46,356 nt of DNA from Gammaproteobacteria bacterium (GTDB taxonomy: Bacteria; Pseudomonadota; Gammaproteobacteria; S012-40): NCBI GenBank assembly GCA_015491615.1, contig WFVN01000288.1:1-46356 (forward strand). The letters run 5' to 3'. Below are positions 8,296-21,276 of this stretch, piece by piece. The translations under genes were made by a program, and so were the position numbers. The notes beneath the pieces were generated by a model, which saw only the letters and a program-made list of their open reading frames with translations, was not told where the DNA came from and did not search any database. Numbering within the stretch: the stretch's first letter is position 1; every line of letters starts with the position of its first letter.

Positions 8296-8660
8296 TCCTG
8301 TTCTTCGTCCTTCTTGGCGCCTGAAACGGCCTCGTCGATGAGACGACTGAGCCGCTGGCCGCGCTCGATGGTTTCGTCCAGTTGGAAACGCAGCTCAGGG
8401 AGGCTACGCAGATCGAGCACCTGCCCCAGTCGATGGCGCAGGCGGCCGGCGCGTTTGCGCAGATGCGCCAACCCTTCGGCCTCGTCGGGGCTATTGAACA
8501 GGCTCACGTACACGCGCGCGTAGGAGAAATCCCGGCTCACCTCCACCGCCGAGATGGTGGGCATTCCCAGGAAGGGGTCGTCCATCTCCCGGGTGATGAT
8601 CTGGGCCAGGGCGCGCTGCATGAGATGCTCCACCCGGCGCCGGCGCTGTTCAGAGGCCAT
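8292..8660 (-). CDS. rbfA: ribosome-binding factor A
   Basis: 122 aa, RbfA-like (RVEHLMQRALAQIITREMDDP...), in the canonical position between infB and truB. Confidence 0.93.
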   Translation of the reverse strand: MASEQRRRRVEHLMQRALAQIITREMDDPFLGMPTISAVEVSRDFSYARVYVSLFNSPDEAEGLAHLRKRAGRLRHRLGQVLDLRSLPELRFQLDETIERGQRLSRLIDEAVSGAKKDEEQE

Positions 8661-8663
8661 GAC

Positions 8664-11141
<2,478 letters not shown>

Positions 11142-11159
11142 ATTCGACTCCAGCTTTCC

Positions 11160-12659
11160 TTACTGGTGCGCCTCGGCGAACCAGGGTTCGCGGGCCTTCA
11201 TGATCAACTTGGCCGCCCGTTCCTCGTCCATCCCTTCAATGTCCATGAGGTCGTCCACCGACTGCTCGGCGAGGTCCTCCATGGTCTTGATGCCCCTCTC
11301 GCCCAGAAGACGGGCCAAGTGGGGATCCATGCCCTCCATCTCCAGGAGATCCGGTTCCACGCCGGTCTCGGTGAGGGCCTCTTCCTTGGCAATGGCGCGC
11401 GTGATGAGAGCGTCCTTGGCGCGACGGCGCAGTTCCTCAACGATATCTTCGTCGAACTCTTCGATCTGGAGCATCTCTTGGGCAGGCACATAAGCCACCT
11501 CTTCGATGGTGGTAAACCCTTCGTCCACCAGGATGGAGGCCACCTCTTCGTCCACGTCCAGTTGTTCCATGAACAACCGGCGGATGGCCTGTGCCTCCTT
11601 GTCGCGTTTTTCCTGTGCCTCTTCCTCGGTCATGATGTTGAGGGTCCAACCGGTCAGCTCGCTGGCCAGGCGCACGTTCTGGCCGCCGCGACCGATGGCG
11701 ATGGAGAGCTGGTCCTCGCTGACGGCGACGTCCATGCTGTGGGCATCCTCGTCGACGATGATGGAGACGATTTCCGCCGGCGACAGGGCGTTGAGGACGA
11801 ATTGGGCGGGGTTCTCGTCCCAGAGGACGATGTCTACCCGCTCACCCGCCAATTCGTTGGACACCGCCTGTACGCGGGAACCGCGCATGCCGACGCAAGC
11901 GCCAACGGGATCGACACGCGGATCGTTGGAACGCACGGCGATCTTGGCGCGCGAGCCGGGGTCGCGGGCGGCACCCATGATGTCGATGAGCCCCTCGCCG
12001 ATCTCCGGCACCTCGATCTTGAACAACTCGATGAGGAACTCCGGGCAGGTGCGGCTGATGAACAATTGCGGCCCGCGCGGCTCGGAGCGCACGTCGCGCA
12101 GGTAGCCGCGCACGCGATCGCCGGGACGCAGGCTCTCACGCGGGATGAGCTCCTCACGGTAGATGATGCCCTCGGCATTGTTGTTGAGGTCGACGATGAC
12201 GTTGCCCTTGTCGATGCGTTTCACCTGGCCGATGACAATCTCGCCCTTGCGGTCACGGAAGAGCTCGACCATCTTCGCCCGTTCCGCCTCGCGCACCTTC
12301 TGGACGATGACCTGCTTGGCGGTCTGGGCGCCGATGCGGCCGAACTCCACCGCCTTGATGGGTTCCTCGATGTAGCCCCCCACCTCGATGTCGTGCTGGC
12401 GCTCACGAGCCTCGCTGAGGCGAATCTGTCGGTCGGGCTCGAACTCCTCCGCATCGTCGGGGACCACTTCCCAACGCCGAAAGGCTTGGTATTCGCCGGT
12501 GTCCCGGTCGATGGCCACGCGCACGTCTACATCGCCCTCGAAGCGCTTCTTAGTGGCCGTGGCCAGGGCGGCCTCCACCGCCCCGAAGATGACTTCTTTG
12601 TCCACGCCCTTCTCGTTGGACACCACCGTCACAACGGTGAGAATCTCTTTGCCGTTCAT
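11160..12659 (-). CDS. nusA: transcription termination/antitermination factor NusA
   Basis: 499 aa with S1, KH1/KH2 and C-terminal acidic repeat regions, in canonical operon position. Confidence 0.98.
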
Positions 12660-12684
12660 CTTGTCTTTCGCCTCCTGCCCGCGT

Positions 12685-13140
12685 TCACCATTCGGGCACC
12701 AGATTCGCCTTCTCCACCCGGTTCAGAGGCAGCGAGACCGTCTCGCCGTCCACCGCCAGGTGCAGTATCCCCTCTTCGGCGCCGACGATGACGCCGACGA
12801 AATTCTTTCTTCCCTCCAGCGGCTCGACCAAGCGTACCTTGCACCGCTGGCCCGCAAAACGCTGGAAATGGGCCGGCTTGAACAATGGTCGGTCCAGGCC
12901 GGGCGAGGACACCTCCAGGTTGTACTCGCCGGGGATGGGGTCCTCCACGTCCAGCAGGGCACTCACTTCGCGGCTCACCGCCTCGCAATCCTCAATGGTG
13001 ATGCCATCGGGATGGTCGATGTAGAGACGCAACACGGAGTGCCGTCCCTGAGGTAAATATTCCACCCCCAGGAGTTCGTATCCGAGGTCCTCGACCGCAG
13101 GAGCCAGGAGCGTTTCCAATCGACTGTTCTTGTTTGCCAT
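12685..13140 (-). CDS. rimP: ribosome maturation factor RimP
   Basis: 151 aa from the internal ATG at 13140 ([29 protein letters not shown] ... [14 protein letters not shown] ... KANLVPEW). This aligns end to end with RimP as I recall it. The GTG extension to 13218 in the track is not RimP-like. Confidence 0.9.
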
Positions 13141-13499: not shown

Positions 13500-15419
13500 T
13501 CATCTTATCTTCCCCTGCCCCGCTTCCGGGACGAGACAGGCACGAATCTCGTCGGCCAGCAGGGTCTCTTTCTCTTCCAGACGCCGCACCAGTTCCAGAT
13601 AGGACTCGCGGTGTGCCTGCAATACCGACTCGGCACGCGTTTCGGCTTCCCGCAACAAACGTTGTACGGCCTTATCCACCGCTGCAGCGGCCAATTCGCT
13701 GTAACGCCGGGGTTGGGCCATCTCCTTGCCCAAGAAGGGATGCTCGTCGCTCTCACGCAGGTCCACCGGGCCGATGCGCTCGTCCATGCCCCAGCGGGAC
13801 ACCATGGCCCGCGCCAAACGTGTGGCCTGGCGGATGTCGTCGTCGGCCCCGGAACTTACGCTGCCCAGGAACAGGCGTTCCGCTGCCCGTCCGCCCAGCA
13901 TCACCGCCAGGCGGTCACGCAGGTACTCCTCGGGCAGGGTGTGTCGCTCCACTTCGGGGAGCTGCTGGGTCACCCCCAGGGCCTGACCGCGGGGGATGAT
14001 GGTCACCTTGTACACCGGATCGGCGTGGGGCAGATAGAAACCCACTGCCGTGTGTCCGCCCTCGTGGACGGCGAGACGATGACGCTCGTCCTCCTGGAGG
14101 ACCAGGTGGCGTTCCACCCCCATGATCACTTTATCCTTGGCCTGGTCGAGATGACGCATGGTGATTTCCGCACGCCGCTCGCGTGCGGCGAGAATGGCGG
14201 CCTCGTTCACCAGGTTCCTCAGATCGGCGCCGGAAAAACCTGGCGTGCCGCGGGCGATGATGGCCAGATCCACGTCCCCGGCCAAGGGTTTGTTGCGCGT
14301 GTGCACCCGCAAGATGGCCTCGCGGTCCTTCACGTCGGGTAGATCCAAGGTCACGTGCCGATCGAAGCGCCCGGGTCGCAACAGGGCGGGGTCCAGCACG
14401 TCCGGCCGATTGGTGGCGGCGACGACGATCACTGCTTCGCGACCGGTGAAGCCGTCCATCTCCGCCAGGATCTGATTGAGGGTCTGCTCCCGTTCGTCGT
14501 GCCCGCCGCCCAGGCCGGTACCGCGTGTGCGGCCCACGGCGTCAATCTCGTCGACGAAGATGATGGATGGAGCACTCTTCTTGGCCTGCTCGAACAGATT
14601 GCGTACCCGGGCCGCCCCCACCCCCACGAACACTTCGATGAATTCCGATGCCGACATGGAAAAGAAAGGGACACCGGCTTCCCCCGCCAAGGCCTTGGCC
14701 AAGAGGGTCTTACCGGTACCAGGGGGTCCCATGAGAAGCACGCCCTTGGGCACTTCCGCCCCCAGCTGGCGAAAGGCCTCCGGGTGCCTGAGGTAGTCCA
14801 CCAGCTCACGCACCTCACGCTTGGCCGTTTCCTGCCCAGCTACGTCGGAGAACTTCACATGGGGCACTTCCGCCGGACCGGAAATGGGCTGGAGGAACTT
14901 CTTCAGGTCTCCACCCCCGGGCGGGCCGCCACCGATGTTGCGGTAAGCACGTCCCATGAGCCACAGCCAGATGACCAGAATGAGGATCCAGGGCAGCCAA
15001 GCGATGAGAATGGTGCGCCAGTCGGTCTCCTGGGAAAGGGCTCGTACGGTCACGTCTCGATCGCGCAAGATCCCCAGAAGGGGTTGAGCCTCCAGGGGCG
15101 GCACCCGGCTTGCAAGGCGCGCACTTTCCTCTCCTTGCGGTCCCAAGGGTTCGGGAAATTTCAGCCGAGCCTCCAGGTCAGCGCCGCGGAAGGTGACCTC
15201 ACTTACCTTACCCGCTTCCAACAGGGCTTCGAAACGACTGAATGGCACCTCGAAGATGGGCTCACCCTGCGTTGGAGCGTAGTACACCCCAAGGAAAGAT
15301 ATGAGCACCAAGAAGATGAGGAACCAAGGCAACCAAGGAGGGGAGTCACCACCGGTCGAGTCGGGCCGGTCTTTCCTTCGGGGATCACGATGGGGCGGCT
15401 TAGAGGGTGGCGTGCTCAT
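13500..15419 (-). CDS. FtsH-type ATP-dependent zinc metalloprotease, probably an extra paralogue
   Basis: Two TM helices flank a ~100-aa periplasmic segment. AAA module [13 protein letters not shown] / [10 protein letters not shown], zinc site HEGGH. ATG at 15419 (MSTPPSK...) preferred over the 15500 start in the track. It is not in the usual ftsH context. Confidence 0.9.
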
Positions 15420-15675
15420 GCATTCGTTCCGCTTCCCGATACCGCCCTTCCGTAAAGGGCGCGGCCCGCACGATAGGACTGTAACGCCACGCTCGGCCAC
15501 CCATTTCCTAACCTGTGGTGGCTATTTTACCCATGCATGGCGTGCACTCGCCCGCCCGAGCTTCCTTGGGGACGAACTTCCCCTCGGGGCACGGGGGGAT
15601 GCCCCCTGAACCGGAATTCGACGTATCGAAAAAGCCGCGGAGCCCCAAGACCCAATTCGTCATGCGCCCTCAACG

Positions 15676-15700
15676 AAGGACCCCGCATCGCGGGGTCCTT
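15676..15700 (-). terminator. stable hairpin just downstream of the protoglobin gene (no U tract)
   Basis: AAGGACCCCG / CGGGGTCCTT arms (10-11 bp) with a 3-5 nt loop, 8 nt past the stop at 15708. Confidence 0.4.
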
Positions 15701-15707
15701 GGGAGAC

Positions 15708-16304
15708 TCAAGCGGTGGCTTTCTCCGCTGGTTGAAACTCCTCGAGCATGCGTTTGATCTGCAGGTCTTTGATACGATTGAGCAGCGCCGGATTGATGCC
15801 CACCTTGGCCAGACCTTCGCGAGTGCTCGATTCCAATACCTCGTCGTAGCACTCTGCAATGAGGGTGGCGATGATGCCGCTCACCCGCAGGAAGGCACCC
15901 GCCAGAACCTGGGCCTTTTCCGGCTCGAATTCGGCGAAACATTTCTGGACGAAGATCTGCTGGACATGGTTCATCATCCCCAGCATGTACAGGTTGCGCG
16001 TCTTTCGCTTGATGTGCATGAGGGCGATGTACCACTGGTAACGCCAGTAGTCCTCGTCCTTGCGCCCGGTGAGCATTTGCTCGTACCAACGGGCGAGGGT
16101 CCGCTCCAGTTTGGGGCGTTCACCCTCCTCCACTACCGAGGCCGCCTCCGGACAAGACAAGAGACGATCGTAGAACTGCTGGACGATCTCCGGCCCCCAC
16201 TGCCGTAGATGCTCCGCTTCCGCCTGCAGCACGTCCCAGTCTTCCGGACGGTAGCCGGTCAGTTCGCTCGCGGTTTTGACGTAGTCTCCGACCAGGGTCA
16301 TCAC
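15708..16304 (-). CDS. single-domain sensor globin (protoglobin / globin-coupled-sensor type)
   Basis: 198 aa. IVQQFYDRLLSCPEAASVV ... LERTLARWYEQMLTG ... YIALMHIKRKTRNLYMLGMMNHV parallels the HemAT-type pattern IV..FY..L ... H.RIGL.P.WY, with His in ALMHIKR as the likely proximal ligand. GTG start overlaps the Roadblock stop by 4 nt. Confidence 0.8.
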   Translation of the reverse strand: MMTLVGDYVKTASELTGYRPEDWDVLQAEAEHLRQWGPEIVQQFYDRLLSCPEAASVVEEGERPKLERTLARWYEQMLTGRKDEDYWRYQWYIALMHIKRKTRNLYMLGMMNHVQQIFVQKCFAEFEPEKAQVLAGAFLRVSGIIATLIAECYDEVLESSTREGLAKVGINPALLNRIKDLQIKRMLEEFQPAEKATA

Positions 16305-16684
16305 ATAGCCTCGATGACTTCGTTGAGATGCTTGCGGATGGCGTAACGAACACCGCCAATGACCGCGGTCTGATCGGTGACGATGGCCAGGATGTCGTCT
16401 TTCACCGTCGCCATGATGACCTTGCCGCGCTCGAATTCGGCCAGGTACTGCTCCATCAAACCAAGGGAAAATTCAGCCCCCAGGCTTTCGGTGGTACCGA
16501 TGGCGGTGGCCACCATGGCCCCCAGGGCATCCATGTCCACGGCGGTGGTGGAAGTCCCCTCGATGACGAAACCGTCACGGCCGATGATGGCGGCGGCGAT
16601 GACCCCCTTGATGGTGAGAAACTCGCTCAGCACTTCGTTGAGGCTGTTGCTCTGCGGATTGGCGGTGGTGATGGTCGCGACCAT
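16301..16684 (-). CDS. Roadblock/LC7 (MglB-like) domain protein
   Basis: 127 aa. IKGVIAAAIIGRDGFVIEG ... DMDALGAMVATAIG ... ILAIVTD is the typical Roadblock/LC7 pattern. AGGAGGA Shine-Dalgarno. Confidence 0.85.
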   Translation of the reverse strand: MVATITTANPQSNSLNEVLSEFLTIKGVIAAAIIGRDGFVIEGTSTTAVDMDALGAMVATAIGTTESLGAEFSLGLMEQYLAEFERGKVIMATVKDDILAIVTDQTAVIGGVRYAIRKHLNEVIEAM

Positions 16685-16748
16685 GATGTTCTCCTCCTAA
16701 TCGTTATAGTGTGTGATGCTCGATTTCCCGTGGCGGGGGACCTGGGAT

Positions 16749-17705
16749 TCAGGAAGCGCGCCCCTCCACCACGCGTTGGACCCAAGTCATGACGCCGTCT
16801 CGATCCTTCGGCGTCGTGAGGAACCCCACCTGTTCCCTCAGGTGGGGATATTGCCCGACGATACCTTTCAGGGTATCCGCCAGGAGCAATTCGCCATGCA
16901 CGACGGGAGCGACCCTGAGGAGATGTTCCATCAGGACCACTTCGGCACGCAAGCCGGCGTCCACCTCCATTTGCAACCAAGCCCCTTCCCAGCGAGGGAG
17001 ACGTTCCACCGCCTCACTCCAACCTTTGCCGGCGACGTCCATGCAGACCAGATAGGAAACATGGTTGCGATCGTGGACCGCTCGTACCAACAAAGTGGTG
17101 GCGACCTCCACCACAGGGGCGCCGAACCACTGCCCGACTGCTTGCAGCCGATCCTTTTCCATGAGAGTAAGATAACGGTGCTGGGCCGTCACTTGCTGCG
17201 CCTTGTCGAGGAAGGAGAACAGGCGCTCCACAGGTAGGGCGCGCGCCGTGATCGAGGTGATCCCCGGGTGGTGGTTGGGGAGCGCATGAGCACGCCGTTC
17301 ACCCGCGAGGGCGTGGTCGAGCACAGCACGCGCTTCTCGCAATGCCGCGCGCGGATTGCCGAAATTCAAACGGCAACGAGCCCTTTCCAGGCCCCGCATA
17401 ATACGGGGATCGTCGTTGTCCCATTGCCGGGCGGTGTGTATGAAGTCTTCGAGGAGCCCACGGATTTCCGCTGCTCGAGATTCGTACTGACGGTCTATGC
17501 GCTCGAAGATGGAGGCAGCTCGGGCAAGGCGCTCTTTGGCCTTCTCGCGCCCGTTGCGGACGGCTCCATCAAGGAGCCCGCTTAACCTAGAAAATTCATC
17601 AGGAAAATAGAAATCGGCGCCGAGGCGCAGATTCGCCTGATAACGAAGAACTAAACCGACCGGGTCAGTAAGCTTCTGTTCATCTAATTTTGGATGTGCG
17701 GACAT
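16749..17705 (-). CDS. hypothetical protein (318 aa from ATG 17705), first gene of the Roadblock-protoglobin operon
   Basis: Long ORF in coding-like composition. Helical N-terminal half, alpha/beta-looking C-terminal half. No Walker A or other motif I recognise. 64 nt upstream of the Roadblock gene on the same strand. Confidence 0.6.
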   Translation of the reverse strand: MSAHPKLDEQKLTDPVGLVLRYQANLRLGADFYFPDEFSRLSGLLDGAVRNGREKAKERLARAASIFERIDRQYESRAAEIRGLLEDFIHTARQWDNDDPRIMRGLERARCRLNFGNPRAALREARAVLDHALAGERRAHALPNHHPGITSITARALPVERLFSFLDKAQQVTAQHRYLTLMEKDRLQAVGQWFGAPVVEVATTLLVRAVHDRNHVSYLVCMDVAGKGWSEAVERLPRWEGAWLQMEVDAGLRAEVVLMEHLLRVAPVVHGELLLADTLKGIVGQYPHLREQVGFLTTPKDRDGVMTWVQRVVEGRAS

Positions 17706-17863
17706 GGGGTGTCGCCTTTCCCAGGAACGTGGTCGATGTTTTACACTGACCACCCGGCCTGCGTGCTACTATATCCCACTCACGCAAGAATACAACTCTG
17801 TCAATTCCTCGATCGCCCGATTCGACCGAGCCACCTTCTTCACGAAGAAAACATATTGAGAAA

Positions 17864-20062
17864 ATGTATTTAAACCATTTCTCCCTTGCTCGCGCACCCT
17901 TCGACTTCCTGCTGGAACCCGATCTCACCTACTGGAGTCCGGGTCTGAAGGCACTCTGGACGGAAGTGACCCGAGGCCTCGGCAATGGTCGCAGCCCCCA
18001 GTTCGTCGTCGCCCGACCCGGATGCGGGAAGTCGTTCTTCCTCCACTTGCTCGCCCTGCACAGCATCGAACAGGGACATAACTGCGCCTACATCGACGTC
18101 GCTGGCCAGCGCGCCGACCTGTTTGAATCGCTCTCCCTCGCCTACGGGCTGGAATACCCTTCCCAGAGTGAGGAACAGTATCTCACATGGTTCGAGAGCT
18201 TCCTCGCCTCGTCACGCCTCGGGGGCATCCAGAACGTCCTGTTGCTGGACAACGTCCACCGCATGGACTCCCAGGCTCTACAGAAACTGGTCTATTTGAT
18301 CAAGATCCGTATCGACAATACCCCTTTGCTCCACGTGGTGGCGACCCTCAGTGAAAAGGAAGACCAAGAAGCCTTGGAGTTGCTCACCGCCAACCAGGTC
18401 TCCGCGAAGCCACTCCTCCTCCCCCCCCTGGACGTGGCGCACACGGGTGCCTACATCACCCACCGCCTCAAAGCCGCCGGACACGACAACGGAGACCTTT
18501 TCGACGATGACGTGGTGGAGTGGCTCCATGCGCGCTCGCGCGGCATTCCCCGCGAGATCAATTATTACGCCGACTTGTTCATGACGCATGCCTACCTGCG
18601 GCACCAGCGACGGATCCATACCCGACTCGTTCAATTGGTGGATCCCACCGACAACACCCGCAAGCCGAAGGAGACCCACCCCGGGATCGTCGTCGAACGA
18701 CCGAAGCCGTCCACCTCCCCCCGCGGGGGTACGAGCGAAACCATAGGAGGCAAGACGACGCCCGATGAGGGCATCGCCACGGTGAAGTCGTCTCCGCCCC
18801 GCCCCACCCACGAAAGGCAAAAATCGGGGGGAACGGCCGAGCCATCCCGAGCGACCGAACCGACAGTGGCCGACGAGCCCAGATCTTCGTCCAAGGCCAA
18901 GTCCACCAGAGGGCGACCCGAAGTAGGGAAAGGCAACCCACGACACACGGACGAAGGCAAAGGCACGCGAACGACGAACGACACGAAACAACCCTCGCCG
19001 CCTCCCCCTACGGCCGAGAGCCCTGTTTCTTCCACCTCCCGACCGGAAAATGAAGCACCGGCCGCCAATCGCCGAGGTTTGTTCCTCGCCGCAGCCGCTC
19101 TCGTCATGCTGGTCTTGGCCGGCCTCGTTCTGTTGCAGAGCGACGAAACCAGAGACGTCCCCCCTCCGCAGGCGGTAGCGGAAACTTCTCCAGGAGAACG
19201 TCCCAATACCCCCATCCCGGTAACCCGTACGCCGCCCGCCCAACCTGAGGGACGGTCCGAAACCGAAACCGGGGGACAACCCCCCAGCCGCGTGGCCAAG
19301 CAAGAGGTGACGACCCAACCGGTGGAACAACCGGTCAAGACAGCGCCAACTTCACCTGCTGCCCCCCGAACGCGGACGGATGAGAAACCAACTCCTCCCG
19401 TAGCGACTCCTGCACCCGAGACGAAACCGCGCATTGAAGAGCCGAGGAAACCAGCAACCCTCGTCGCCAAGGCTGAGCCGCCCCTCGAAACCGCCGCGGC
19501 GCCCCCGGGAGAAACGGTGTCGTCTCCTCCACCCTCGCCCCGTCTTTCCGAAGCCGCGAAAGAGCGCGATTCACAAATACCAGCGGCGCCCGTCGCCGAT
19601 AGCGAGACAGAAGTCGCTCCGGAGGGACACACGCCTACGGAAACGGACTCCGAATTCGCCAGTTTCGTCCCTGCGCCCGATGGCCAGGATCCGTTGCTGG
19701 CCGTGCAGGCCTTGGACAACCTCGTCCACCGTTTCCAATGGGCTTACGAAAATGCCGACGAACACGTCCTTGCAGAGATTTTCGACCCCAACATTCGCAC
19801 CAACGAAAACAGCGGTCGCGACGCCATCCTCAACGAATACGGCCAGTTCTTCCGCGTCACCCAAACCCGTCGCTTGGCAATCGGTCCCCTCGAATGGCAG
19901 ACTTCCGGTATGGTTTCCACCGGGGTGGGACGCTTTACCGCCCATGTAGTGACCAAGAGGGGCAAGGAACGCACCTTCACCGGCACGTTGACCATCGAAG
20001 CCATCGCCACCCCCGCGGGCCGTCCCAAGATCACGGCCCTTTACTACCGATACGATAGCTGA
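17864..20062 (+). CDS. ExeA/GspA/MshM-like AAA ATPase fused to a long Pro-rich linker, one TM helix and an NTF2-like C-terminal domain
   Basis: N-terminus MYLNHFSLARAPFDFLLEPDLTYW ... RPGCGKS ... VLLLDNVHRM ... SRGIPREINYYAD follows the ExeA pattern (MYxxHFGLxxxPF; GxGKT; DEAQ; GxPRxIN). Then ~130 aa of P/S/T/K/R-rich sequence, TM GLFLAAAALVMLVLAGLVLL (nt ~19076-19135), ~170 aa P/E/T/A-rich, and a ~120-aa globular tail. Confidence 0.8.
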   Translation: MYLNHFSLARAPFDFLLEPDLTYWSPGLKALWTEVTRGLGNGRSPQFVVARPGCGKSFFLHLLALHSIEQGHNCAYIDVAGQRADLFESLSLAYGLEYPSQSEEQYLTWFESFLASSRLGGIQNVLLLDNVHRMDSQALQKLVYLIKIRIDNTPLLHVVATLSEKEDQEALELLTANQVSAKPLLLPPLDVAHTGAYITHRLKAAGHDNGDLFDDDVVEWLHARSRGIPREINYYADLFMTHAYLRHQRRIHTRLVQLVDPTDNTRKPKETHPGIVVERPKPSTSPRGGTSETIGGKTTPDEGIATVKSSPPRPTHERQKSGGTAEPSRATEPTVADEPRSSSKAKSTRGRPEVGKGNPRHTDEGKGTRTTNDTKQPSPPPPTAESPVSSTSRPENEAPAANRRGLFLAAAALVMLVLAGLVLLQSDETRDVPPPQAVAETSPGERPNTPIPVTRTPPAQPEGRSETETGGQPPSRVAKQEVTTQPVEQPVKTAPTSPAAPRTRTDEKPTPPVATPAPETKPRIEEPRKPATLVAKAEPPLETAAAPPGETVSSPPPSPRLSEAAKERDSQIPAAPVADSETEVAPEGHTPTETDSEFASFVPAPDGQDPLLAVQALDNLVHRFQWAYENADEHVLAEIFDPNIRTNENSGRDAILNEYGQFFRVTQTRRLAIGPLEWQTSGMVSTGVGRFTAHVVTKRGKERTFTGTLTIEAIATPAGRPKITALYYRYDS

Positions 20063-20067
20063 AGACC

Positions 20068-21276
20068 ATGCGTCTCTTCGCCCTCACGCTACTGCTGATC
20101 TTTTCCTCCCTCACTCATGCAAAAGAACCCCTGCGTCTCGCGGTGCTCGGCATGCCGTTGGATGAGCTGGAGGCGGAAATCGAAACGCCGCCAGCCCCCG
20201 CGCCGCAGCCTTCTCCACGGGCGCCGATCGCCCCTCCACCACCCGCTGTTCCAGCCCCTGCGGAGATCCAGCCTGCCGTTCCAGTGGTCGAAGACGACAG
20301 CGGTGACGCCGCCACTCCCTCACCTTCCGCTAGCGAGGCGGCATCGGCTGTCGCCCCCCAACCCTCTCCTCCCCCTGGTGACATGGCCTTGTTCCGAATT
20401 CTGAACGAGCGACGCCACGACTTTTATCCTTCCACTTTGGCCCTGCCCGTCTATGGCAACCAACAACGCTTGGATCCCGATCTGTGCTTGGCCCTGGCCT
20501 GGAACATGGACGCACGCTGGCAATCACGTCTGTGTTACACGGCCCTGTATGGAGAACTTGAGGAGCGCGATCGACGGAGTGGTGCCATGCTGGGTCGATT
20601 CAGCACCCAATGGGCAGACGGCCAACTGGACCTCGTCGATTACGTCCATGCCTTCGACGACGACTTCATGATCAGTGTCGGCTGGGTGGTCTCGCGCTAT
20701 CTCCTCGATTTCGACCGCACCGGTCAGTACACCGAGCTGGGCGGCATCCGTTACGATAGCCAGAGCACCCTCGCCGCCCTCACCAGCGGTCTACAGGTGG
20801 GCACCTATTTGCGAACCGCCGAAGGCTCCGTGCTGCGGGCGCGGGTGAGTCTCGAACCCTTTGGGCGCTACGATCTGAATCAGGCCTTCTTCGTGGGTAA
20901 CGACCTCTCCGCCAGCAATCGGCAGAGCGGCTCCAATATCGGCACCGTCGTTTCCCTTAGCTTTTCCGCTACGCGCAGAATCGCCTCCCGCCTGGAAGGA
21001 ACGGCAGAGGTGCGCTATCGCCATCTGCCTTACGCTTACGACACTCTCATGACGGCCCAGGTGGGCACCGATAAGATCCAGTTGGAAGATCGCTTCTCGG
21101 GCAGCGACACCCTCCTTCGCACGGGATTTCGTCTCGGAATTGAAGTGCCCTGGGCGAGCGTCTCTCCTTATGTGGAGACGAGCCTGTTCTATACCAGCCA
21201 TAAGGACGAGGCGGACAAGGAATATCTTTACTACAGCGGTTACCGCTTTTACCTGGGAGTCTCGAAGATTTTTTGA
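20068..21276 (+). CDS. putative outer-membrane beta-barrel protein with Pro/Ala-rich N-terminal region
   Basis: Signal peptide MRLFALTLLLIFSSLTHA. ~90 aa P/A-rich segment, then ~280 aa of alternating amphipathic strands ending YRFYLGVSKIF (C-terminal Phe beta-signal). Starts 5 nt after the ExeA-like stop. Confidence 0.7.
   Translation: MRLFALTLLLIFSSLTHAKEPLRLAVLGMPLDELEAEIETPPAPAPQPSPRAPIAPPPPAVPAPAEIQPAVPVVEDDSGDAATPSPSASEAASAVAPQPSPPPGDMALFRILNERRHDFYPSTLALPVYGNQQRLDPDLCLALAWNMDARWQSRLCYTALYGELEERDRRSGAMLGRFSTQWADGQLDLVDYVHAFDDDFMISVGWVVSRYLLDFDRTGQYTELGGIRYDSQSTLAALTSGLQVGTYLRTAEGSVLRARVSLEPFGRYDLNQAFFVGNDLSASNRQSGSNIGTVVSLSFSATRRIASRLEGTAEVRYRHLPYAYDTLMTAQVGTDKIQLEDRFSGSDTLLRTGFRLGIEVPWASVSPYVETSLFYTSHKDEADKEYLYYSGYRFYLGVSKIF

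Follow-up and report, generated by a model that had tools for sequence, protein, structure and literature searches.

In the MglA/MglB systems of Myxococcus and Thermus, and in the "Group 3" systems of beta- and gamma-Proteobacteria, a Roadblock/LC7 protein (MglB) is encoded beside a small protein with the G-domain fold. Among 749 MglB homologues, 328 (~44%) were "orphans" without a GTPase, none of which had been characterised as of 2014 (PMC4316618); therefore, lack of a GTPase is not unusual in itself. A globin is fused to a Roadblock/LC7 domain in HGbRL of Methylacidiphilum infernorum, the only published precedent that we found, and its authors proposed that ligand-driven movements of the globin are passed on to the Roadblock domain (PMC4476040). 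Stand-alone sensor globins and protoglobins are single-domain proteins related to the globin-coupled sensors (GCS), and no signalling partner is named for them in the available part of PMC7475203. Here we describe a locus on a 46,356-nt contig of an uncultured gammaproteobacterium (GenBank WFVN01000288.1, assembly GCA_015491615.1; this whole stretch is called the window), in which the genes of an orphan protein (designated X), an MglB-like Roadblock protein and a stand-alone globin form an operon:

16749–17705, minus strand: gene of orphan protein X (318 aa), the first in the operon (open reading frame and alignment of starts)
16301–16684, minus strand: Roadblock/LC7 protein (MglB-like), 127 aa (Pfam PF03259, 2.2e-13)
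15708–16304, minus strand: stand-alone sensor-family (S) globin (Pfam PF11563, 7.8e-16)

These three genes are a real, conserved cassette in a tightly packed operon. In our judgement the evidence is evenly poised for the reading that the trio is a GTPase-less variant of an MglA/MglB-type switch with haem input, probably acting on an ExeA-like ATPase encoded next to it.

Comparison with described systems

As in the MglA/MglB systems, the Roadblock protein of the window was encoded beside a protein with the small G-domain fold, predicted in the case of X. In contrast to them, no P-loop GTPase was present, X lacked the G1, G4 and G5 motifs and carried an additional helical N-terminal domain of 140 aa, and the Roadblock protein fell in another clade than the GTPase-coupled Roadblocks. 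The actinobacterial conservon CvnA–D is likewise an operon of a sensor, a Roadblock protein (CvnB5 being a PDB relative of ours), a G-fold protein and a partner of unknown function, but the window had no histidine-kinase-like CvnA, DUF742 protein CvnC or active CvnD GTPase, and its sensor was a haem globin. The globin belonged to the same family as those of the GCS proteins AfGcHK, HemAT and GsGCS and shared their Tyr B10 and His F8, but had no covalently attached output domain. As in HGbRL, a haem globin was coupled to a Roadblock protein as its presumed transmitter. HGbRL, however, is a single polypeptide of one genus, whereas the window pair consisted of separate genes occurring in many gammaproteobacterial families; the HGbRL globin is related to HGbI, forms an unusual site-swapped dimer and appears to lie outside the protoglobin/sensor family, whereas the window globin belonged to the S family. 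The neighbouring ATPase resembled ExeA/GspA/MshM in its MYxxxFxLxxxPF start, Walker A and GIPRxIN motif, but differed from them by a Pro-rich spacer, a C-terminal domain of ~140 aa in which no peptidoglycan-binding domain was detected by Pfam, and a DN Walker B.

In the literature searched, neither the combination of Roadblock and protoglobin nor that of ExeA and Roadblock was found. An initial annotation made from the window sequence had called the cassette undescribed; this stands for the three genes together, for which no report was found, but not for the link of globin and Roadblock, which is known from the HGbRL fusion. The cassette is a variant of the Roadblock/G-protein switch, not a wholly new kind of system.

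Conservation of the three-gene cassette

The three minus-strand open reading frames (ORFs) of the initial annotation were confirmed from the sequence at the positions listed above. X starts at the ATG at 17705, as judged from an alignment in which MSA(H/Y)PK was kept in six homologues. The letters at the Roadblock/globin junction were GCT ATG TGA TGA CC. The overlap of 4 nt (16301–16304, GTGA) claimed earlier exists only with a GTG start of the globin (198 aa); with the ATG start at 16301 (197 aa), which was picked by gene callers in relatives, it shrinks to 1 nt (TGATG). The two frames were coupled under either start.

On every contig with a close relative of X (down to 44–47% identity), the X, Roadblock and globin genes shared a strand, opposite to that of the barrel and AAA_22 genes described below, and the outer flanks of the cassette differed between contigs. 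Roadblock and protoglobin genes were thus co-localised in every genome with a close orthologue of X, a co-occurrence that the initial annotation had proposed to survey. More distant members of the X family were located with iterated hidden Markov models (HMMs) and clustering in the contigs of Roadblock relatives and in 80 loci from species-representative genomes (individual loci are given as L numbers). ORFs in the fetched loci were called by a longest-ORF rule guided by HMM matches, and some neighbour lengths are approximate. With Robl for Roadblock and Pgb for globin, the gene orders seen were X-Robl-Pgb, X-Robl-Robl2-Pgb (L015 and L022), Pgb-X-Robl (L020) and Robl-Pgb-X-Robl (L025), and the globin lay on the opposite strand in L021, L023 and L112. 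When 12 genomes were searched whole, X-family genes were found only adjacent to Roadblock genes (5/12), and there were no stray copies.

The globin and its adjacency to Roadblock genes

The globin matched Pfam Protoglobin (PF11563) with 58.9 bits (cut-off 25), and its closest solved relatives were sensor globin domains, those of AfGcHK (5ohe, the best), Tlr1989 (8h17) and a Geobacter GCS (2w31). Its Y45 (B10) aligned to the distal Tyr45, and H97 (F8) to the proximal His99, of AfGcHK 5ohe. Among 25 distinct sequences of the globin subfamily, 22 of them Roadblock-adjacent, F44, Y45, W73, W87, H97 and R100 showed at least 90% conservation. The proximal-His motif, described as intact in the initial annotation, was therefore found in place, and the haem-ligating residues were kept across the subfamily. 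On these alignments, the protein is a single-domain S-family globin that has retained His F8 as haem ligand and Tyr B10 for stabilising the bound ligand. No output or transmitter domain was detected on it by Pfam, its 198 aa comprising the globin only, and it is not a GCS in this sense. Its database relatives (13/13) were likewise of one domain and 191–205 aa long. A fusion of globin and Roadblock was looked for among the close relatives of the globin, and none was found.

A search of 401 evenly sampled genomes of the class with the window globin yielded 13 genes in 12 of them. Eleven of the 13 lay directly beside a Roadblock gene, including globins only 26–33% identical to the query. Roadblock genes occurred in 53/400 of the same genomes, indicating that chance adjacency is negligible. 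Besides the globin-anchored loci, the surroundings of 60 of the ~80 Roadblock matches in this sample were fetched. The 11/13 adjacency suggests that stand-alone globins are split globin-coupled sensors, with Roadblock as the transmitter.

The window belongs to a 2.1-Mb metagenome-assembled genome (MAG), G000, which is 87% complete; that of a congener, G001, is 97% complete. G000 contained three protoglobin-domain genes above the Pfam cut-off, including that of the window, and one weaker match. The two others (G000:C185:682-1128 and G000:C35:3719-4144) lay within ORFs of 347–369 aa and are presumably conventional globin-coupled sensors.

The Roadblock protein and the absence of a small GTPase

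The Roadblock protein matched Pfam Robl_LC7 with 50.2 bits (cut-off 23), and its sequence relatives in the PDB were 7yh1, 7f8m, 9jue, CvnB5 (3leq) and MglB (3t1s). It reached 20.8 bits against the MglB equivalog NF052242 of NCBIfam, below the cut-off of 200. It was encoded by the sole Roadblock gene of G000 and was far better conserved than X, with 62 relatives at 50–70% identity, mostly from MAGs of Gammaproteobacteria.

No P-loop GTPase was present in the three-gene block, and no MglA-family GTPase lay near the Roadblock gene, so that the genomic context was not that of an MglB. In the whole of G000, a Ras model matched only IF2 and a 619-aa open frame, which is too long for a small GTPase, and the same picture was seen in G001 (frames of ~620 aa). 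The initial annotation, which had seen no P-loop GTPase in the block, is borne out by this genome-wide search, in which no match was of small-GTPase size. As a correction to it, the divergent neighbour (17864–20062) is itself a P-loop protein, an AAA_22 ATPase with the Walker A sequence GCGKS.

In a maximum-likelihood tree of 109 Roadblock proteins, the window protein fell in a supported clade (98/88) of 43 sequences. This clade comprised the gammaproteobacterial Roadblock genes linked to X, AAA_22 or globin together with those of Fibrobacterota and Methanomicrobiales, and none of them adjoined a GTPase. The other large group (81/81) had 57 sequences and included 54 of the 57 GTPase-coupled Roadblocks, with or without globin; the remaining three were divergent and branched separately. 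In Methanomicrobiales (L039:9998-15310, L042 and L072), which held the closest archaeal relatives, a pair of Roadblock genes, one of 115 aa and one of ~230 aa with a C-terminal Roadblock domain, directly preceded the genes of a PilB-like T2SSE ATPase and a T2SSF protein, and a MinD/ParA-like gene was close by. In Fibrobacterota (L032–L035 and L037), a Ser/Thr kinase-TPR gene was followed by a PATAN/DUF4388 protein gene, an orphan and then three tandem Roadblock genes.

The commonest gammaproteobacterial Roadblock cassette consisted of an orphan Y with a receiver (REC)-like N-terminus, a GTPase of 178 aa (PF03029/Ras, with GPVGxGKTT and GTPGQERF motifs), a protein Z of ~215–245 aa and the Roadblock protein, and matches the "Group 3" MglA-MglB systems (PMC4316618). 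Six such cassettes had a stand-alone globin directly beside Roadblock: L126, L127, L150 (1794-5353), L153, L157 and L160. The 2014 survey of Group 3 systems makes no mention of globins (PMC4316618). A further variant had no GTPase: in L117 (6050-10599), L119 (159-4293) and L120, Y-Robl-Pgb preceded another gene, which was TPR-containing in L119, and then Z, and L116 had Y-Robl-Pgb; the Roadblocks of these four loci formed a subclade (100/98). The window had no REC-like orphan Y, no CvnA or CvnC and no active GTPase, and X had no profile similarity to Y or Z.

Protein X: a diverging family with a predicted G-domain-like fold

As the initial annotation had supposed, X could not be assigned to a characterised family. 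As a single sequence it gave nothing above cut-off in Pfam, nothing in NCBIfam and no sequence match in the PDB, and a profile of 17 sequences gave only noise against the Pfam, NCBIfam, PADLOC and PDB databases. Only eight close homologues were found among 5.8 billion proteins, and searching 1.8 billion representatives with a profile yielded only two clusters, both of the window genus.

In 10 further loci, the gene directly upstream of Roadblock, where X lies in the window, encoded a member of a family of 309–440-aa proteins. The alignment of this family with X by hhalign was full-length and collinear (293 columns, P 0.0045). Both shared the motifs YRxLLRxGxD and LLxRxxxSRxxxxYhVG, the N-terminal motif RYQANLRLGADFYFP of X corresponding to YRxLLRWGxD in distant members, and R208 and Y218 were invariant in the 17-sequence alignment of the family. 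X thus belongs to a family that diverges rapidly and was found only next to Roadblock genes of this clade.

The structure of the window X was predicted with AlphaFold2 (AF2) from alignments of 7 and of 17 sequences, and both models had one shared topology with two domains:

17286–17705, minus strand: all-helical N-terminal domain, residues ~1–140, with helices 15–27, 35–50, 53–95, 100–114 and 118–139 (AF2)
16752–17258, minus strand: alpha/beta C-terminal domain, residues ~150–318, G-domain-like without a P-loop (AF2 and Foldseek)

In the predicted C-terminal domain an extra beta-alpha unit was followed by b1-a1-b2-b3-a2-b4-a3-b5-a4-b6-a5. Strands b2 and b3 formed a tight antiparallel hairpin, and the strand order of the models was that of TRAFAC GTPases. 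In each of two Foldseek searches of the PDB, 50/50 of the matches listed included the G domain of a TRAFAC GTPase (Arl6, Arf1, EF-Tu, EngB, Ras, Rab, Rac and G-alpha), a uniformity that appears notable for predicted models despite marginal scores.

The G1 P-loop GxxxxGK[ST] was absent from X. Its b1-a1 connection had only 1–2 residues (strand to 182, helix from 184), and in distant relatives this region read hhhhG plus 3–4 residues (e.g. VLVLGEKGELNRLF), with no GK[ST]. The remark in the initial annotation that the orphan has no Walker A thus extends to its relatives. Neither G4 ([NT]KxD) nor G5 (SA[KL]) was found after b5 or b6 in the X alignments. A G3-type DxxG (DVAG, DSTG or DSAG) followed b3 in six of the seven homologues from the window genus; it was shifted in P0006 and absent in the wider family. 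X is best described, as far as the models can be trusted, as G-domain-like, without a P-loop, a pseudo-GTPase by fold. The predictions support the earlier speculation of a cryptic NTPase-like partner, through the G-domain topology of the C-terminal half of X, the G domain in every listed Foldseek match and the missing Walker A.

Among the families of the Fibrobacterota loci, the C-terminal part of the PATAN/DUF4388 proteins (family c4, e.g. L033:2941-4338) matched the C-terminal domain of X (hhalign P 1.6e-4, 91 columns), with the common motifs hhhhYG...L..FS and PVhRhGRS..CLYIxG; families c13, c7 and c8 gave no signal. The matching PATAN proteins were encoded two genes upstream of same-clade Roadblock genes. 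Genes of PATAN proteins are known to occur next to those of MglA and MglB (PMC4316618), which supports the view that the C-terminal domain of X occupies the usual place of a G protein.

The divergent ExeA-like ATPase and its partner gene

Next to the operon, the following elements were found:

17706–17863, no strand: divergent intergenic region between the X and AAA_22 genes, 158 bp (divergence kept in L003–L006 and L015–L019)
17864–20062, plus strand: ExeA-like AAA_22 ATPase, 732 aa (Pfam AAA_22, 2.2e-9; TIGR03015, 9e-26)
20068–21276, plus strand: barrel-like protein, 402 aa (ORF; no family in Pfam or NCBIfam)

The ATPase matched PF13401 (AAA_22) with 2.2e-9, and its match to TIGR03015 (9e-26) was below the cut-off of that model. 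It consisted of an N-terminal AAA_22 domain, a Pro-rich spacer, a hydrophobic, probably transmembrane stretch (LFLAAAALVMLVLAGLVLL) and a conserved C-terminal domain of ~140 aa, in which no peptidoglycan-binding domain was found by Pfam. A faint SnoaL_3 match was seen in the C-terminal domain of the L017 orthologue. Walker A was GCGKS in the window and GxGK[ST] in orthologues. For Walker B, the window genus had LLLDNVH or LLLDNMH, against DEAQ or DDAQ in the orthologues of other genera; the DN form may slow hydrolysis.

Orthologues sharing both the N-terminal ATPase and the C-terminal domain lay divergent from X-Roadblock in L015, L016, L017 and L019, from four other genera, where X was only 12–18% identical to the window protein. 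In L024 (886-2682), a 598-aa protein contained AAA_22 (residues 46–175) fused to an X-like C-terminal part, which matched members of the X family with BLASTP E values down to 3e-16; the fusion gene was directly upstream of Robl-Robl(372 aa)-Pgb. The ATPase is proposed as the output of the cassette because of this Rosetta-stone fusion and the recurrent divergent arrangement, and the functional unit is probably larger than three genes. The 158-bp region is presumed to be a shared control region for X and the AAA_22 gene.

The partner gene of the ATPase encoded an unclassified barrel-like protein and not an ExeB/GspB. Its product of 402 aa began like a signal peptide, contained a region rich in Pro and Ala and ended in ...SKIF, features that make it a probable outer-membrane barrel. 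The gene was kept with the ATPase gene within the genus and, with a gap of 5 nt, is probably co-transcribed with it. Homology to the barrel-like genes that follow Roadblock in L016 and L017 was not significant (hhalign E 0.16).

A proposed mechanism and its alternatives

If the trio is a GTPase-less switch with haem input, the Roadblock dimer would dock on the G-like domain of X, as MglB does on MglA, and the globin would bind Roadblock, as in the HGbRL fusion. O2, NO, CO or the redox state at the haem would then alter the Roadblock-X complex, and the ligand state of the globin would replace the GTP/GDP cycle. Through its helical domain, X would in turn gate the ExeA-like protein at the ATPase domain in the cytoplasm. 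The target of the ExeA-like protein, reached via its conserved and presumably periplasmic C-terminal domain, would be the envelope or the barrel protein encoded with it.

Several points weigh against this interpretation. The G-domain call for X derives solely from predicted structure. The models from 7 and 17 sequences had predicted local distance difference test (pLDDT) values of 83.8, with one of five models confident, and 84.8, with two of five above 83, and the Foldseek scores were marginal (best E 6.8e-4 to 7e-4; template modelling (TM) scores of 0.43–0.54 normalised to small GTPases; root-mean-square deviation 5–8 Å). The P-loop is missing in all members of the X family and descent from GTPases is unsupported; by hhalign, the X family gave no signal against the 37 cassette GTPases (P 0.43), Z (0.7) or Y (0.075), and an origin of X from any of them was not retained. 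The AAA_22 link consists of divergent adjacency and one fusion, and the X-Roadblock loci L016, L017 and L019 have AAA_22 without a globin. Roadblock-globin pairs also occur with neither X nor AAA_22 (L026–L031 and L036), indicating that the pair does not require X or the ATPase as partners. The neighbours of such X-less pairs were unrelated, among them an M1 peptidase and an amidohydrolase; in L036, a CHASE-PAS-GGDEF-EAL protein (L036:7162-9954) was encoded directly upstream of the pair.

An alternative that we consider rather unlikely takes Roadblock and globin as a self-contained split sensor in which Roadblock acts directly on the AAA_22 ATPase, X being a lineage-specific scaffold or adaptor whose likeness to GTPases is that of a generic three-layer alpha/beta protein. 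It would accommodate the many genomes with Roadblock-globin pairs but no X, the position of the same-clade Methanomicrobiales Roadblocks next to a PilB-like ATPase and not a GTPase, and the missing profile similarity of X to GTPases together with the marginal Foldseek scores; Roadblock proteins are also implicated in NTPase regulation generally (Koonin and Aravind 2000, as cited in PMC4316618). A scaffold of this kind is harder to reconcile with the finding that X was never away from a Roadblock gene in the 12 genomes and that this adjacency survives gene-order shuffling, with the G domain in 50/50 of the listed matches of both searches and no other alpha/beta fold, with the TRAFAC-typical b2-b3 hairpin of the model, and with the L024 fusion, where the partner of AAA_22 is X and not Roadblock. 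The operon might instead be independent of the AAA_22 and barrel pair and have its target elsewhere, at the cell pole or a type IV filament as for MglAB, or among c-di-GMP/cellulose enzymes. This we hold to be distinctly unlikely: the surroundings of Roadblock-globin pairs do vary (the CHASE-PAS-GGDEF-EAL gene of L036, BcsA-BcsB near L021, CheW-LysM in L015 and L022, peptidases), and the link is not universal, as X-Roadblock-globin loci L021, L023, L025 and L028 had no AAA_22 within 8 kb, but in five genera the AAA_22 gene stays divergent from X-Roadblock though X identity to the window protein falls to 12–18%, and the AAA_22-X fusion of L024 is hard to explain without a functional link. Very improbable, in our view, is a globin that acts enzymatically (with NO dioxygenase or nitrite reductase activity, as reported for the Methanosarcina protoglobin) or stores a ligand, and is merely co-regulated with Roadblock. 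Enzymatic roles have been proposed for protoglobins (PMC4020757), and the fact that PMC7475203, as far as available, names no partner would agree with stand-alone S-family globins having no proven one; against this, Roadblock adjacency holds down to 26–33% globin identity and in two distant Roadblock clades, start and stop overlap in the window genus, the HGbRL fusion exists, and the nearest relatives of solved structure come from globin-coupled kinases, as their sensor domains.

Going beyond the GTPase-less switch at this locus, X may belong to a widespread family of P-loop-less G-like domains (X, the AAA_22-X fusion and the PATAN proteins of Fibrobacterota) that would be the missing partner of the orphan Roadblock clade, the ligand state of the globin setting a Roadblock-pseudoG complex that controls an ExeA-like envelope ATPase; we regard this extension as doubtful. 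X, as a G-like protein without a P-loop, offers a concrete hypothesis for the partner of one large orphan Roadblock clade. If true, the cassette would represent a nucleotide-independent "G-protein" module, and stand-alone sensor globins of bacteria would have a defined signalling partner for the first time. The linked genes of an ExeA-like membrane ATPase and a barrel protein also point to an envelope system, so far unstudied, that is controlled by oxygen or redox state.

In L021 (2454-8467), a BcsA-BcsB fusion with a PilZ domain was encoded next to a 368-aa Roadblock-domain protein, near the Roadblock-globin pair.

Other features of the window

Two further elements accompany the operon:

16693–16698, minus strand: Shine-Dalgarno sequence AGGAGG of the Roadblock gene, 8 nt before the ATG at 16684
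15676–15700, minus strand: GC-rich hairpin, 8 nt past the globin stop (11-bp stem, dG -23.6 kcal/mol, z -2.8)

The hairpin had no U tract behind its stem and is a probable operon end or mRNA stabiliser. No sigma-70-like promoter was found by a consensus scan of 15300–18100. A reading of the locus as a defence system was rejected, there being no meaningful PADLOC matches.

A complete FtsH paralogue (13500–15500, minus strand) lay between the globin and rimP-nusA-infB. It was absent there in the congeners L003 and L005, in which rimP-nusA-infB directly followed the globin, and present in L006 behind an Endo_dU gene. FtsH as a member of the cassette was rejected on account of its absence in L003 and L005 and the strong hairpin behind the globin stop; because FtsH and the Endo_dU gene vary between contigs, FtsH is not in the unit. 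An ORF of 1469 aa (8382–12791, plus strand), antisense to infB and nusA, was a spurious frame typical of high-GC DNA.

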